Shown piece after piece: positions 5,910 through 58,795 of a stretch of 64,000 nucleotides of DNA. The DNA is from Escherichia coli (GTDB lineage: Bacteria; Pseudomonadota; Gammaproteobacteria; Enterobacterales; Enterobacteriaceae). The DNA is taken from assembly GCF_044324785.1 (NCBI RefSeq), contig NZ_CP172127.1; one strand, written 5' to 3'. The notes under the pieces were generated by a model. That model did not search any database, was not told the DNA's origin, and saw nothing but the letters and a program-made list of their open reading frames with translations. A program made the translations under genes and the position numbers. Positions within the stretch are counted from its first letter, which is position 1. Every line of letters begins with the position of its first letter.

Positions 5910-7271
5910 TTACTGCGCAGCGGCAGGTTTACGCGGACGGCGGCGACGTTGTTGTTCGCCTGCCGGTTTGGCATCGCCGAGACGACGAGACGGTTTTTCT
6001 GCAGGTTTTGCGCTTGCAGATTTTGCACCACCTTCAGCGCGGCGTGGTTGCTGTTGACCGCGACCACCGCCTTGTCCACGACCGCCGCCACGTTGCTGGC
6101 GACCATTCTGGATCGGTTCGGCTTTGATTGACGGGTCCGGCTCATAGCCCGGAATCGCAATGCGCGGGATCTCTTTTTTCAGCAGTTTTTCGATATCACG
6201 CAGCAGTTTGTGTTCATCCACACACACCAGCGATAACGCTTCACCGGTGGCTGCGGCACGACCGGTACGCCCGATACGGTGGACATAATCTTCCGGTACG
6301 TTTGGCAGTTCATAGTTGACCACGTGCGGCAGCTCTTCAATATCCAGGCCGCGCGCAGCGATGTCAGTTGCCACCAGTACACGAATATCGCCCGATTTAA
6401 AATCGGCCAGCGCACGGGTACGCGCACCTTGCGATTTATTACCGTGGATCGCCGCACTGCGGATGCCATCTTTATTGAGCTGTTCAGCCAGATGGTTAGC
6501 GCCATGTTTGGTACGGGTAAACACCAGCACCTGCTGCCAGTTCCCTTTCCCAATCATGTGCGACAGCAATTCGCGTTTGCGTTTCTTATCAACAAAGTGA
6601 ACATGCTGGGTCACCTGATCAGACGCGGTATTGCGGCGTGCCACTTCGATTTCCAGCGGGTTGTGCAGCAGTTTTTCCGCCAGGTTTTTAATATCGTCAG
6701 AGAAAGTGGCGGAGAACAACAGGTTCTGGCGCTTCGCTGGCAGCTTAGTCAACACACGACGGATATCGTGGATAAAGCCCATATCGAGCATGCGGTCAGC
6801 TTCATCGAGGACGAGAATTTCAACCTGATCCAGCTTCACTGCATTCTGATGTTCCAGGTCCAGCAAACGTCCCGGCGTTGCCACCAGCACATCAACGCCA
6901 CCGCGCAGCTTCATCATCTGCGGGTTGATGCTGACGCCACCAAACACCACCAGCGAACGAATGTTCAGGTATTTGCTGTAATCACGGACGTTTTCGCCAA
7001 TCTGCGCCGCCAGTTCACGGGTCGGGGTAAGAATGAGCGCACGTACCGGACGACGCCCTTTGGCGTGCGGCTGGCGAGTGATCAGGTGTTGCAACAGCGG
7101 CAGCGTAAAGCCCGCTGTTTTGCCGGTACCGGTCTGGGCACTGGCCATCAGGTCGCGGCCCTCCAGCACCGCAGGGATCGCCTGCTGCTGAATAGGGGTG
7201 GGTTCACGGTAACCCTGCTCGGCAACGGCGCGCAGGATATCAGGGCTTAAACCCAAAGAATCGAAAGACAT
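5910..7271 (-). CDS. rhlE: ATP-dependent RNA helicase RhlE (DEAD-box)
   Basis: 453-aa ORF with DEAD-box motifs ([23 protein letters not shown]) and an Arg/Gly-rich C-terminal tail. Confidence 0.95.
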
Positions 7272-7464
7272 AACTACTCCGAACCGCCCCGACCGTTACC
7301 GGTGTAGTTTTCAGGGAGATACTGAAAAGGAAAATGACAAAAACCACAATGTCATGAGGGAGCGGAGTGTAGCAGTTTTTGTGACGCAGCGCATAAATTA
7401 TCCCTGTGACTGGCGTAGCTAAAATTCTTAGCCATACTGGACAACTCCCCTATGGAGTCATAAT

Positions 7465-7486
7465 CTTAATCAATCATTTGATTAAG
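7465..7486. promoter_or_regulatory. Palindrome in the rhlE-cecR divergent region; candidate CecR (TetR-family) operator
   Basis: cttaatcaa-tcat-ttgattaag, with perfect 9-bp arms, 17 bp upstream of the cecR start. Confidence 0.4.
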
Positions 7487-7502
7487 AATGGACTGTGTGA
7501 TG

Positions 7503-10890
<3,388 letters not shown>

Positions 10891-10898
<8 letters not shown>

Positions 10899-12024
10899 TC
10901 CGATCCTGTCCTGGCGTCGCGTGCGGGCACTGTGCGTCAAAGAGACGCGGCAGATCGTTCGCGATCCGAGTAGCTGGCTGATTGCGGTGGTGATCCCGCT
11001 GCTACTGCTGTTTATTTTTGGTTACGGCATTAACCTCGACTCCAGCAAGCTGCGGGTCGGGATTTTACTGGAACAGCGTAGCGAAGCGGCGCTGGATTTC
11101 ACCCACACCATGACCGGTTCGCCCTACATCGACGCCACCATCAGCGATAACCGTCAGGAATTGATCGCCAAAATGCAGGCAGGGAAAATTCGCGGTCTGG
11201 TGGTTATTCCCGTGGATTTCGCCGAACAGATGGAGCGCGCCAACGCCACCGCACCGATTCAGGTGATCACCGACGGCAGTGAGCCGAATACCGCTAACTT
11301 TGTGCAGGGGTATGTCGAAGGGATCTGGCAGATCTGGCAAATGCAGCGGGCGGAGGATAACGGGCAGACTTTTGAGCCGCTTATTGATGTACAAACCCGC
11401 TACTGGTTTAACCCGGCGGCAATAAGCCAGCACTTTATTATCCCCGGTGCGGTGACCATTATCATGACGGTCATCGGCGCGATCCTCACCTCGCTGGTGG
11501 TGGCGCGAGAATGGGAACGCGGCACCATGGAGGCTCTGCTCTCTACGGAGATTACCCGCACGGAACTGCTGCTGTGTAAGCTGATCCCTTATTACTTTCT
11601 CGGGATGCTGGCGATGTTGCTGTGTATGCTGGTGTCAGTGTTTATTCTCGGCGTACCGTATCGCGGTTCGCTGCTGATTCTGTTTTTTATCTCCAGCCTG
11701 TTTTTACTCAGTACCCTGGGGATGGGGCTGCTGATTTCCACGATAACCCGCAACCAGTTCAATGCCGCTCAGGTCGCTCTGAACGCGGCTTTTCTGCCGT
11801 CGATTATGCTTTCCGGCTTTATTTTTCAAATCGACAGTATGCCCGCGGTGATCCGCGCGGTGACGTACATTATTCCCGCTCGTTATTTCGTCAGCACCCT
11901 GCAAAGCCTGTTCCTCGCCGGGAATATTCCAGTGGTGCTGGTGGTAAACGTGCTGTTTTTGATCGCTTCGGCGGTGATGTTTATCGGCCTGACGTGGCTG
12001 AAAACCAAACGTCGGCTGGATTAG
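10891..12024 (+). CDS. ybhS: ABC-2 family permease YbhS
   Basis: ORF 10885..12024, polytopic membrane protein; synteny. Confidence 0.9.
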
Positions 12025-12034
12025 GGAGAAGAGC

Positions 12035-13141
12035 ATGTTTCATCGCTTATGGACGTTAATCCGCAAAGAGTTGCAGTCGCTGCTGCGCGAACCGCAAACC
12101 CGTGCGATTCTGATTTTACCCGTGCTGATTCAGGTGATCCTGTTCCCGTTCGCCGCCACGCTGGAAGTGACTAACGCCACCATCGCCATCTACGATGAAG
12201 ATAACGGCGAGCACTCGGTAGAACTTACTCAACGTTTTGCCCGCGCCAGCGCCTTTACCCATGTGCTGCTACTGAAAAGCCCGCAGGAGATCCGCCCGAC
12301 CATCGACACGCAAAAGGCGTTACTACTGGTACGTTTCCCGGCTGACTTCTCGCGCAAACTGGATACCTTCCAGACCGCGCCGTTGCAGTTGATCCTCGAC
12401 GGGCGTAACTCCAACAGTGCGCAAATTGCCGCTAACTACCTGCAACAGATCGTCAAAAATTATCAGCAGGAGCTGCTGGAAGGAAAACCGAAACCCAACA
12501 ACAGCGAGCTGGTAGTACGCAACTGGTATAACCCGAATCTCGACTACAAATGGTTTGTGGTGCCGTCGCTGATCGCCATGATCACCACTATCGGCGTAAT
12601 GATCGTCACTTCACTTTCTGTCGCCCGCGAACGTGAACAAGGTACGCTCGATCAGTTACTGGTCTCACCGCTCACTACCTGGCAGATCTTCATCGGCAAA
12701 GCCGTACCGGCATTAATTGTCGCCACCTTCCAGGCCACCATTGTGCTGGCGATTGGTATCTGGGCGTATCAAATCCCCTTCGCCGGATCGCTGGCGCTGT
12801 TCTACTTTACGATGGTGATTTACGGTTTATCGCTGGTGGGATTCGGTCTGTTGATTTCATCACTCTGCTCGACACAACAGCAGGCGTTTATCGGCGTGTT
12901 TGTTTTTATGATGCCCGCCATTCTCCTTTCCGGTTACGTTTCTCCGGTGGAAAACATGCCAGTATGGCTGCAAAACCTGACGTGGATTAACCCTATTCGC
13001 CACTTTACGGACATTACCAAGCAGATTTATTTGAAGGATGCGAGTCTGGATATTGTGTGGAATAGTTTGTGGCCGCTACTGGTGATAACGGCCACGACAG
13101 GGTCAGCGGCGTACGCGATGTTTAGACGTAAGGTGATGTAA
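12035..13141 (+). CDS. ybhR: ABC-2 family permease YbhR
   Basis: 368-aa membrane protein ORF; synteny. Confidence 0.9.
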
Positions 13142-36139: not shown

Positions 36140-36273
36140 ATATACTCTAAATAATTCGAGTTGCAGGAAGGCGACAAGCGAGTGAATCCCCAGGAGCTTA
36201 CATAAGTAAGTGACTGGGGTGAGCGAACGCAGACGCAGCACATGCAACTTGAAGTATGACGAGTATATTTACA
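36140..36273. repeat. ERIC (IRU) element
   Basis: Contains gtgaatccccaggagcttacat and aagtaagtgactggggtgagcg, which match the two standard ERIC primer sequences as I recall them, within an imperfect ~130-bp palindrome. Confidence 0.75.
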
Positions 36274-37702
36274 GCATGTTCCAGCCGATCAGCATATTCC
36301 ACCACCACACTCCGAGGGTGATATGCACCAGGAAGGTTAATATCGTCAGTACCGCACCGACCAACCACCAGGATTTAATATCGTTGTAACCCACGCCAAA
36401 GATGACCGGACCTGCCGCGCCGCCATAGTGAGTAACCATGCCGCCATAGGAGTTGGAGAACAACAGTGCCAGCGCGGTTAACATTAACGGTGCGCCGGAG
36501 ACGTTCGCCAGCATGGCAAATACCGGTAACATGGCAACGATATAGGCACTACCGGAAGCGAAGAAATAACGCACGATAATGCTGAGGAAAATAATAACGA
36601 AGAAAGCAACGTTACCGTGACCATCAAATGCCAGGTTATTTTTAAAGACTTCAGCTAACCATTCGAAGAATTTCACTTTCGATAATAAGGAGCTTAAGCC
36701 GATAATACCGCCGTACCAGATTAAGGTATTCCAGCCGCCTTTATTTTTAACCACGTCTTCCCAGGTAACGATACCCAGCAGCAGCATAGTCGCCATAACA
36801 ACGATTGCCACGGTGGATTCATCAACCCCCAGTGACTTACTGAAAATCCAGCCCAGTAGCGCCAGCACAAAGACACCGAGCAGCATTTTTTCGCGGATTT
36901 TCATCGGTCCCAGTTCGGCAAGGCCCGCTTTGGCGATGGTTTTGTTATCCACCTTCTTAATTTCTGGCGGATACATGGTGTAAATCACCAGCGGGGTGAC
37001 CAGCAGCATAATGATACCCGGCAATCCAGCGGCCAGCGCCCATCCACCCCAGCTAATTTGCAGGTGCAGAATGTCGTTGATCATTTTCAGCGCCAGAATG
37101 TTCCCCGCCATTGCGGTAAAGAACATATAGCTGGTGGTTTTGGTGACCATGTAAATGGACATCATCAGGTAATGTCCGACACGACGCGGACTTTTTTCCG
37201 GTTCGGACCCCAAAGCCACCGCCACACTGTTGATGATCGGTAACACAATGCCGCCCGCACGCGCGGTGTTAGACGGTGTTGCCGGAGCCAGTACCAGATC
37301 GAGGAATACCGTAACGTAACCCAGACCCAGCGTGGTGTTACCGATTTTACCAATCAGCAGATAGGCTATACGTTTGCCTAAGCCGGTGGTCACAAATGCG
37401 GCGCTTAAGGTGAACGCCGAGAACACCAGCCAGGTGGTACCTGAAGAGTAACCGCTTAATACGGCGGTGGTCTTAAACGCACCGTCGGATAAGTTACCGA
37501 CCACCACCATTGAGGCAGCAACGGCAATTAACAGTACGACAGGTTCCGGGAAAGGCTTGATAACCAGCCCCACAATGGCCGCCAGGTAAATACCAAAAAG
37601 CACCCACGCCAGTTCGCTTAATCCTGCCGGAGCTGGCATAAAGCCAATAATACATGGGATCGCTAATATCAGAATTAGCTTCCATAACGATTTTTTATTC
37701 AT
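36269..37702 (-). CDS. ybhI: YbhI, DASS-family anion transporter
   Basis: 477-aa polytopic ORF; synteny. Confidence 0.9.
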   Translation of the reverse strand: MNKKSLWKLILILAIPCIIGFMPAPAGLSELAWVLFGIYLAAIVGLVIKPFPEPVVLLIAVAASMVVVGNLSDGAFKTTAVLSGYSSGTTWLVFSAFTLSAAFVTTGLGKRIAYLLIGKIGNTTLGLGYVTVFLDLVLAPATPSNTARAGGIVLPIINSVAVALGSEPEKSPRRVGHYLMMSIYMVTKTTSYMFFTAMAGNILALKMINDILHLQISWGGWALAAGLPGIIMLLVTPLVIYTMYPPEIKKVDNKTIAKAGLAELGPMKIREKMLLGVFVLALLGWIFSKSLGVDESTVAIVVMATMLLLGIVTWEDVVKNKGGWNTLIWYGGIIGLSSLLSKVKFFEWLAEVFKNNLAFDGHGNVAFFVIIFLSIIVRYFFASGSAYIVAMLPVFAMLANVSGAPLMLTALALLFSNSYGGMVTHYGGAAGPVIFGVGYNDIKSWWLVGAVLTILTFLVHITLGVWWWNMLIGWNML

Positions 37703-37777
37703 TTAAAATCCTGTTCTTTCTGTATGACTCATACAGAAGTCCTTTATTGATTGTCCTTATCCTGACAACGAATTTTT

Positions 37778-38830
37778 TCAGGGAAGAAAAACTTCACCGG
37801 AAAATATTTTTCTGGTTGTCCGAATAACAGATGCGCGTAACGTCGTGGCATCCTGACCTTCATTACTTAAATGAACGTCGAGCGCACCACTGGGGTGTTC
37901 AATATTGATATTGCCGTATCCTACAGAAGGGACGATTTGTCGGGTGACGGTGCCTTCCAATGCACAACTACTGGAAATGGCAATAGCTCCGGTTATCGCC
38001 AGAGCGCGATGGCAAGAATGCGGCATAAAATAACGCACATTAATTGCTCCGCCTTTCTGCGCTGGAGAAATAAGCACAGGTTTAGGGATAACCATATTAC
38101 TGACATCGCCTAAGCCCATTGCTTTACCCGCTTGTAGACGGATAGATTCAATGCGGGCTAATAATGCTTTGTCAGCATCCAGCTCCGTCGGTAATTCATA
38201 GCCTGTTTTTCCCAGATATTCAGCAGGAATAATAACAACTGGCATCGCCATATCGATACAGGTCACCGGGACATCGTCAAAATAATCAATCTGATTATCA
38301 GTCGGGAAGACTTTTCCGGTTTTGGTTCCGGCGGCATTCAGGAAAGTGAGCGCAACCGGTGCGGCAGTACCCGGTACGCCGTCAATTCTGGCGCTACCCT
38401 CGTACTCGACAACACCATTTGGCGTTTGCACATCAGCTTCGATGAACGTACCCGTATTGACGTTGCGGATACGTACGCGGGTAACTGGCGAAGTCGCTGC
38501 AATCAAACCATTTTCAATGGCGAATGCCCCAACGCCAGACAGCATATTGCCGCAGTTAGGCGTGGTATCGACACGTTGCTCATGGACGATAACTTGAGCA
38601 AACAGATAATCGACATCTGCACGCGGATCGCTGGAGCGGCTAATAATGGCGACTTTACTGGTCAGCGGATTACCGCCGCCAATACCGTCAATTTCCAGAT
38701 CGTTACCGGAACCCATAATTGCCATCAATATTTTATCGCGCTGCGTTTGATCTTCGGGTAAATGTTCCGCTAACAAGAACGCGCCCCTCGAGGTTCCACC
38801 TCGCATCATCACGCAGGGTATTTTTTTCAT
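37778..38830 (-). CDS. ybhH: YbhH, PrpF-family isomerase
   Basis: 350-aa ORF; synteny. Confidence 0.9.
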   Translation of the reverse strand: MKKIPCVMMRGGTSRGAFLLAEHLPEDQTQRDKILMAIMGSGNDLEIDGIGGGNPLTSKVAIISRSSDPRADVDYLFAQVIVHEQRVDTTPNCGNMLSGVGAFAIENGLIAATSPVTRVRIRNVNTGTFIEADVQTPNGVVEYEGSARIDGVPGTAAPVALTFLNAAGTKTGKVFPTDNQIDYFDDVPVTCIDMAMPVVIIPAEYLGKTGYELPTELDADKALLARIESIRLQAGKAMGLGDVSNMVIPKPVLISPAQKGGAINVRYFMPHSCHRALAITGAIAISSSCALEGTVTRQIVPSVGYGNINIEHPSGALDVHLSNEGQDATTLRASVIRTTRKIFSGEVFLP

Positions 38831-57706: not shown

Positions 57707-57737
57707 CAAAAAGCGCCTTTAGGGCGCTTTTTTACAT
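57707..57737 (-). terminator. Second copy of the tRNA-operon terminator hairpin, part of a duplicated unit
   Basis: aaaaagcgcctttagggcgcttttttacat, identical to the copy at 57863..57892. Confidence 0.5.
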
Positions 57738-57862: not shown

Positions 57863-57893
57863 AAAAAAGCGCCTTTAGGGCGCTTTTTTACAT
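57863..57893 (-). terminator. Rho-independent terminator of the lysT tRNA operon
   Basis: Hairpin gcgcctttagggcgc flanked by A/T runs, immediately 3' of the last tRNA. Confidence 0.65.
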
Positions 57894-57969
57894 TGGTGGG
57901 TCGTGCAGGATTCGAACCTGCGACCAATTGATTAAAAGTCAACTGCTCTACCAACTGAGCTAACGACCC
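57894..57969 (-). tRNA. lysQ: tRNA-Lys (UUU)
   Basis: 76-nt reverse complement matches E. coli tRNA-Lys with anticodon loop cuUUUaa and CCA end. Symbol assigned by position in the cluster. Confidence 0.93.
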
Positions 57970-58002
57970 CTTGCGGGATTATGCTGCTTTAATCATTCAG
58001 GA

Positions 58003-58078
58003 TGGTGGGTCGTGCAGGATTCGAACCTGCGACCAATTGATTAAAAGTCAACTGCTCTACCAACTGAGCTAACGACCC
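58003..58078 (-). tRNA. lysZ: tRNA-Lys (UUU)
   Basis: Identical 76-nt tRNA-Lys sequence. Confidence 0.93.
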
Positions 58079-58126
58079 ATACGGGTGTTACCTGAAAGAT
58101 TTCTACTCGGAACCAATCTTTAAAAT

Positions 58127-58224
58127 TGGTGGGTCGTGCAGGATGACTCGCTTCGCTCGCCCTACGGGCCGTTGCTGACGCAACGTTATCCTTCACGCTT
58201 AACATCTGAGTTTGATGTTAAAAT
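58127..58224 (-). repeat. Spacer unit with a 17-nt tRNA-Lys 3'-end stub and a conserved hairpin
   Basis: tggtgggtcgtgcagga followed by tgactcgcttcgctcgccctacgggccgttgctgacgcaacg... Confidence 0.6.
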
Positions 58225-58300
58225 TGGTGGGTCGTGCAGGATTCGAACCTGCGACCAATTGATTAAAAGTCAACTGCTCTACCAACTGAGCTAACGACCC
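58225..58300 (-). tRNA. lysY: tRNA-Lys (UUU)
   Basis: Identical 76-nt tRNA-Lys sequence. Confidence 0.93.
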
Positions 58301-58303
58301 GAG

Positions 58304-58379
58304 TGGTGGGTGATGACGGGATCGAACCGCCGACCCCCTCCTTGTAAGGGAGGTGCTCTCCCAGCTGAGCTAATCACCC
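58304..58379 (-). tRNA. valZ: tRNA-Val (UAC)
   Basis: Reverse complement is gggtgattagctcagctgggagagcacctcccttacaaggagggggtcggcggttcgatcccgtcatcacccacca. Confidence 0.93.
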
Positions 58380-58430
58380 GATACTGCGCTGGATACTACA
58401 AACTACTTCCACCGAACCCACCGTAATTAG

Positions 58431-58506
58431 TGGTGGGTCGTGCAGGATTCGAACCTGCGACCAATTGATTAAAAGTCAACTGCTCTACCAACTGAGCTAA
58501 CGACCC
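58431..58506 (-). tRNA. lysW: tRNA-Lys (UUU)
   Basis: Identical 76-nt tRNA-Lys sequence. Confidence 0.93.
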
Positions 58507-58508
58507 GG

Positions 58509-58584
58509 TGGTGGGTGATGACGGGATCGAACCGCCGACCCCCTCCTTGTAAGGGAGGTGCTCTCCCAGCTGAGCTAATCACCC
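58509..58584 (-). tRNA. valT: tRNA-Val (UAC)
   Basis: Identical 76-nt tRNA-Val sequence. Confidence 0.93.
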
Positions 58585-58619
58585 GATACTACGCTGGATA
58601 CTACAACTAACTATGTTAG

Positions 58620-58719
58620 TGGTGGGTCGTGCAGGATGACTCGACTTCGTCTCGCCCTTCGGGCCGTTGCTGATGCAACGTTATCCTTCACGTTTTACTA
58701 CCGCTTCCACCTTAGCGAT
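58620..58719 (-). repeat. Spacer unit with a 17-nt tRNA-Lys 3'-end stub and a conserved hairpin
   Basis: tggtgggtcgtgcagga followed by tgactcgacttcgtctcgcccttcgggccgttgctgatgcaacg...; closely similar to the unit at 58127..58224. Confidence 0.6.
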
Positions 58720-58795
58720 TGGTGGGTCGTGCAGGATTCGAACCTGCGACCAATTGATTAAAAGTCAACTGCTCTACCAACTGAGCTAACGACCC
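58720..58795 (-). tRNA. lysT: tRNA-Lys (UUU)
   Basis: Identical 76-nt tRNA-Lys sequence; first gene of the operon. Confidence 0.93.

Follow-up and report, generated by a model that had tools for sequence, protein, structure and literature searches.

The divergent genes rhlE and cecR of Escherichia coli are separated by a 228-bp spacer, and this spacer contains a perfect palindrome a short distance upstream of the cecR start codon. This raises the question of what such a sequence does there. It may be an operator bound by the regulator encoded next to it, a hairpin in the leader of the cecR messenger, a site for a nucleoid protein, or a symmetry that arose by chance and has no function. Coordinates below refer to the window, that is, the whole 64-kb stretch of DNA that was analysed.

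The palindrome and its locus

The repeat occupies 7464-7487 and reads TCTTAATCAA-TCAT-TTGATTAAGA, with arms of 10 nt each (7464-7473 and 7478-7487) that are 100% complementary and enclose a 4-nt centre; the symmetry stops at 7463/7488, where A faces A. The first-pass annotation of this DNA had described it as cttaatcaa-tcat-ttgattaag at 7465-7486, and the letters are as it gave them, but the arms that it counted as 9 bp are really 10 bp. It had correctly placed the palindrome in the rhlE-cecR divergent region, rhlE lying at 5910-7271 (minus strand) and cecR at 7500-8174 (plus strand). The 17 bp that it allowed to the cecR start has to be shortened to 12-13 nt: the RefSeq-supported ATG at 7500 lies 12 nt past the 10-bp-arm repeat and 13 nt (7487-7499) past the 9-bp-arm version. 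Another ATG, at 7488, was weighed as a possible start of cecR and discarded, since other species do not conserve it and RefSeq begins the gene at 7500. The region is about 97% identical to K-12 MG1655, where the palindrome is the same base for base (NC_000913.3 830656-830679, by offset from the cecR start). One base is changed relative to K-12, at 7497, outside the palindrome.

The gene that begins just downstream, cecR (ybiH), encodes a TetR-family regulator with the domains PF00440 TetR_N (E 2e-14) and PF09209 CecR_C (E 4e-35), and its product matches CecR itself in the PDB (9i1x, E 3e-148). Among the solved structures there is no CecR-DNA complex, 9i1x and 1t33 containing protein only. Downstream of cecR, all on the plus strand, are ybhG (8174-9169), the second gene of the operon, for an HlyD-type membrane fusion protein; ybhF (9162-10898), for an ABC ATPase with two nucleotide-binding domains; and ybhS (10891-12024) and ybhR (12035-13141), each for an ABC-2 permease. 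On the other side rhlE encodes a DEAD-box RNA helicase. In a 99.3%-identical E. coli genome, the genes bear the same names in RefSeq, and the annotated cecR start corresponds to 7500. At the 3' end of cecR (8169-8174), the usual TAG stop is replaced by TAC (Tyr) and the next codon is TGA, which overlaps the ATG of ybhG; because of this, CecR has 224 aa here rather than 223.

The spacer is richer in A+T than the window (GC 0.44 versus 0.52), which slightly raises the odds that an A+T palindrome appears in it by chance. However, when the 228-bp spacer was shuffled 20,000 times with its dinucleotides preserved, only 37 shuffles contained a perfect repeat whose arms reached 10 bp or more with no more than 10 nt between them; for arms of 9 bp or more, the number was 132 of 20,000. 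The whole window contains 8 perfect repeats of the first kind against 0.5 expected; judged by reading their sequences, the remaining ones mostly resemble G+C-rich terminator hairpins. When TTAATCAANNNNTTGATTAA is sought in the 64-kb window with up to 3 mismatches allowed, the palindrome upstream of cecR is its sole match.

Some further symmetric elements of the window were observed. Between the minus-strand genes ybhI (36269-37702) and ybhH (37778-38830), which are 75 nt apart, lies a perfect A+T-rich palindrome with 10-bp arms, TTCTGTATGA-C-TCATACAGAA (37718-37738), possibly an intercistronic hairpin or a site for a protein. The hairpin AAAAAGCGCCTTTAGGGCGCTTTTT is found twice, at 57708-57732 and 57863-57889, 155 bp apart, adjoining seven tRNA genes (five Lys-UUU and two Val-UAC; 57894-58795, minus strand), and the stretch between the two copies resembles a degenerate tRNA-like remnant.

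Conservation of the box

A scan with one genome per species yielded 80 cecR loci, all from Enterobacteriaceae and with 73-100% protein identity; the counts given here cover the 79 that had enough upstream DNA. The box is present in 79/79 of these loci and starts 34-38 nt before the cecR ATG. Within its 20-bp core (7466-7485, TTAATCAA-TCAT-TTGATTAA in the window), 16 of the 20 positions are identical in all 79 loci and two more in 78; the only positions that vary are the central 7476 and 7477, single changes in the arms being seen in 2/79 loci. In a column profile of the 240 bp upstream of cecR, the box is 90-100% conserved and the flanking columns 30-60%, and no other element of the spacer is as conserved as the palindrome over the 79 species. 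Inside E. coli, 5408 of 5426 complete genomes match the 34-bp stretch 7459-7492 with an identity of 99% or more, and in the most divergent strain found, the 5 differences over 81 bp all lie outside the palindrome.

Judged by these position counts, the functional core is the conserved 20-bp segment 7466-7485 rather than the full arms. The outermost TC/GA pair, which makes the E. coli arms 10 bp long, is not conserved elsewhere, TC/TT being the commonest combination (25/79 loci), and in Salmonella and many Citrobacter the symmetry extends to 24 bp. As for the centre, 67/79 loci carry TCGA and thereby an unbroken perfect 20-bp palindrome, TTAATCAATCGATTGATTAA. A TCAT centre, as in the window, is found in six loci (five Escherichia and one further enterobacterium), and TCGT in four, all from Kluyvera. 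Read from this distribution, the ancestral box is an unbroken palindrome in which TTAATCAATC directly meets GATTGATTAA, and the asymmetric Escherichia centre is derived; the comparison indicates that TCAT alters the two innermost bases of one half-site only.

More distant CecR homologues were collected by an exhaustive profile search and their contigs inspected; each is represented by single contigs, so that these cases are anecdotal. A homologue with 59% identity has, at an unchanged offset, a perfect palindrome of 30 bp, TAAACTTAATCAATCGATTGATTAAGTTTA, and one with 49% identity has the box TTAATCATATGATTGATTAA. Homologues with 43% and 40% identity, both on G+C-rich contigs, have AAAATCAAACGATTGATCAA and TTAATCAATCGATTGACC, respectively. 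At 38% identity, 12-bp arms, TTACACAATCGT/ACGATTGTGTAA, flank a TTGACA hexamer. Related sequences, either the box or CAATCG/CGATTG half-sites, are thus kept in 5 of the 6 distant contexts, and the helix-turn-helix segment that contains the recognition helix, GQNIAAI.Y.F..K, is conserved in all the distant homologues examined. The four distant loci with enough downstream sequence all place the site upstream of cecR-ybhG-ybhF-like operons. In the spacer of the homologue with 46% identity, which has the same rhlE / cecR-ybhGF layout, a search for the box or its half-sites gave nothing convincing. On these contigs, the palindrome accompanies cecR homologues down to about 40% identity.

Two of these loci show further peculiarities. 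At the 38% locus (L092:1884-1931), TTACACAATCGT and ACGATTGTGTAA are 13 nt apart, a different spacing for what is seemingly the same half-site. At the 49% locus (L087/L088), the box and a divergent rhlE-like gene are kept; the cecR-ybhG-ybhF-like operon appears degraded there, the ybhGFSR genes after cecR being apparently degraded or replaced. At this place, one of its contigs shows nothing but short ORFs and a fragment of an ABC-2 permease, with a PhdYeFM-type antitoxin gene nearby.

Conservation excludes the chance reading. A functionless palindrome would be expected neither to stay nearly invariant at its core in 79 species while its flanks diverge, nor to be kept in distant homologues, and together with the scarcity of such repeats in the shuffled spacer, this leaves the chance reading a negligible likelihood.

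DNA site or RNA hairpin

Apart from the box, two short conserved blocks stand out upstream of cecR: TGGACA at 7438-7443 and CATAAT at 7459-7464, both on the plus strand. From the alignment, the conservation profile and the position counts, we take them as the -35-like and -10-like elements of a putative cecR promoter, the second abutting the left arm. They are separated by 15 bp; because of this spacing, it is from conservation that the assignment draws its support, and the same spacing is the reason why a strict sigma-70 scan of 7150-7650 called no promoter. An alternative register would use TAATCT (7461-7466), a weak -10 situated 17 bp from TGGACA. In either register, the -10 would abut or overlap the left arm, and transcription would be expected to start at about 7471-7473, inside the box. 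A start so placed would correspond to the classical arrangement for steric repression.

The position of this predicted start also bears on whether the palindrome acts as RNA, that is, as a hairpin in the 5' leader of cecR that would influence the stability of the mRNA or its translation, and not as an operator in the DNA. The segment 7460-7512 does fold into a 10-bp stem (MFE -12.9 kcal/mol, z = -3.2 relative to shuffles). However, any perfect palindrome folds in this manner, and the fold therefore brings no independent evidence. With a -10-like element against the left arm and a predicted start inside that arm, the full hairpin would probably not be transcribed at all. The arms being invariant, there is no compensatory change or covariation to support pairing, and the outer pair is mostly unpaired in other genera (TC/TT in 25/79 loci). 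Moreover, the TCGA centre of most species turns the element into a 20-bp palindrome with no loop, which suits a dimeric protein. The stem is A+U-rich with no U-run after it, a terminator search called none at this place, and an Rfam scan of the rhlE-cecR spacer (E<=1) returned no match; with no G+C-rich stem followed by a U-run, no Rfam match and no covariation, an intrinsic terminator or regulatory RNA hairpin was rejected. We consider a role as leader hairpin extremely unlikely.

If the palindrome is bound as DNA, a nucleoid protein such as IHF could be its ligand, either in the place of CecR or alongside it. Both strands match the core consensus of IHF, WATCAANNNNTTR, exactly, through AATCAATCATTTG (7468-7480, plus) and AATCAAATGATTG (7471-7483, minus), and the ancestral form with TCGA fits this consensus too. 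Yet the consensus is found at chance frequency: the window has 4 matches where 2.5 are expected, and at least 4 turn up in 24 of 100 shuffles. The double match over 7468-7483 is probably a by-product, since the TCAA-N4-TTGA symmetry of the box brings the motif on both strands. IHF binding would account neither for the 16 invariant arm positions nor for the co-occurrence of the box with cecR homologues in distant G+C-rich genomes, and it is CecR itself that SELEX and ChIP-exo place in the spacer. Given the chance frequency of the consensus, we set the IHF reading aside as very improbable.

CecR as the protein that probably binds the box

It is highly probable that the palindrome is the autoregulatory operator, or CecR box, of the TetR-family protein CecR for cecR-ybhGFSR; repression would proceed by blocking the promoter. 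A CecR homodimer, or possibly two, would bind the symmetric 20-bp core TTAATCAA-N4-TTGATTAA. Because this core follows directly on the putative -10 of cecR-ybhGFSR and includes the predicted start of transcription, bound CecR would be expected to block RNA polymerase and so to repress its own operon by a steric mechanism. A ligand in the C-terminal pocket of CecR is then expected to release the protein and to switch on the YbhG/YbhFSR efflux system.

The CecR operator at this locus is already known, its biology having been published in 2016. Yamanaka, Shimada, Yamamoto and Ishihama (2016, Microbiology 162:1253) are said to have footprinted a site containing the 'complete palindromic sequence AATTAGTT-AACTAATT', and the EMSA and reporter experiments that the first-pass annotation proposed had reportedly been described that same year. 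The published box, AATTAGTT-AACTAATT, is presumably this palindrome written as its complement: the base-by-base complement of TTAATCAA...TTGATTAA gives exactly this string. The literal AATTAGTT does not occur in the rhlE-cecR spacer, its sole copy in the window being at 1461-1468. Within the later literature covered, no text has cecR or ybiH together with the box strings, and the structural paper, the SELEX reviews, and the EcoCyc and TFTR surveys mention the site and do not give its sequence.

We rely on published reports for CecR binding in the spacer, the single target, operon repression, rhlE activation and ligand binding; the present analysis contributes the sequence, its non-random symmetry, its conservation, its fixed position by cecR and the identities of the genes. 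One source describes a CecR recognition sequence in the spacer between the divergent cecR-ybhGFSR and rhlE units, the former being under negative and the latter under positive CecR control (PMC12998191). Genomic SELEX makes CecR a single-target regulator (PMC5934670; PMC5210515). In vivo, the ChIP-exo data are in line with SELEX and show a palindromic A+T-rich motif, of which the inverted repeats are 'separated by 7 nt', a description that does not literally fit the 4-nt centre (PMC6237786). A cecR knockout raises the expression of a five-gene module, recovered with a precision and recall of 1, and CecR is therefore a repressor (PMC6892915). According to the structural paper on CecR, the protein binds antibiotics, and its ligands are given in the literature as chloramphenicol or cephalosporins.

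Several earlier proposals gain from these data. The palindrome had been said to have the size and symmetry of a TetR-family operator, and we find a 24-bp repeat with a 20-bp core next to a gene for a TetR_N and CecR_C protein. That it would be an autoregulatory site for cecR-ybhGFSR agrees with its near-invariance in 79 species, with the single CecR target reported from SELEX and with the reported repression of the operon. A documented operator elsewhere had been named as what would overturn the proposal, and the literature puts the CecR site in this very spacer. What is new here is limited to the comparative points, namely the ancestral perfect 20-bp form, the derived Escherichia centre and the persistence of the half-site in distant CecR-like regulators.

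On the rhlE side, our reading is that a -10-like GATAAT is conserved on the minus strand (7402 to 7397) and that a convincing -35 is lacking. This would put the centre of the box roughly 85 bp upstream of the predicted rhlE start. Promoter competition between the back-to-back promoters may be considered as an alternative to a direct activation of rhlE by CecR. We think it unlikely, though worth stating, that the Escherichia operator was deliberately weakened: if CecR contacts the central bases, the derived centre could retune the basal expression of YbhGFSR or the inducer threshold, or could shift the balance between the cecR and rhlE promoters. Were this the case, the shifted balance might explain the reported 'activation' of rhlE by promoter competition and not by direct contact.

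The leader of rhlE (7272-7402, minus strand) drew our attention in its own right. In 65/79 loci, the approximately 120 nt between GATAAT/GATATT and the ATG (7271) are very strongly conserved, beyond what one would expect of a spacer. Pairing is preserved there in two small hairpins, each of which shows a double change from A-U to G-C in one set of four Klebsiella/Raoultella loci; the leader has an MFE z-score of -2.06, and Rfam gave no match for it. It may be a structured 5' leader, and we know of no description of one for rhlE.

The site governs an ABC-type efflux system, YbhG/YbhFSR, with effects on chloramphenicol and cephalosporin sensitivity, and since the box controls this system, its position and sequence matter for the reading of resistance-related promoter mutations. 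Evolution under CCCP selected mutations in cecR and in the cecR-rhlE spacer (bioRxiv 10.1101/392977). The box is also among the most conserved non-coding elements of the locus, and provides a clear motif with which CecR regulons can be annotated elsewhere.

Comparison with known operators

The closest counterpart is the CecR (YbiH) site of K-12 in the rhlE/cecR spacer, with the same locus, the same genes and an identical palindrome; nothing of substance differs, the window strain being set apart by the one base at 7497 and the one-residue C-terminal extension of CecR.

The TetR/tetO system of Tn10 is the general model: a homodimer sits on a short palindromic operator that overlaps a promoter between divergent genes, controls efflux and is released by an inducer. 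The CecR box would likewise be a palindromic operator over the putative promoter of an efflux system, in a divergent spacer and with release by a ligand expected. In contrast, tetO has a 15-bp core and is present in two copies, whereas CecR has one box of 20 bp (24 bp in the window strain). TetR is transcribed divergently from tetA, while cecR is the first gene of the pump operon itself; and the gene divergent from cecR, rhlE, is unrelated to efflux and reportedly activated rather than repressed, unlike in the TetR/tetO arrangement.

AcrR and QacR bind inverted repeats of 24 bp and 28 bp, respectively, with two dimers on each. They share with CecR autoregulation by a TetR-family protein and a long A+T-rich inverted repeat, which covers the promoter or transcription start (putative in the case of CecR) of an operon for multidrug efflux; their sequences are unrelated to the CecR box. 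With its 20-24 bp, the latter is of a size that would fit either a single dimer or, as for QacR and AcrR, a pair.

Finally, among PDB entries other than CecR itself, RutR gives the best match to the N-terminal domain of CecR (E about 2e-6). The RutR box, TTGACCAnnTGGTCAA, and the CecR box are both symmetric and both contain TTGA/TCAA; however, the half-sites are oriented in opposite ways, TTGA being outside in the RutR box and inside in the CecR box, and the two systems differ in the length and sequence of the box and in the size of the regulon.
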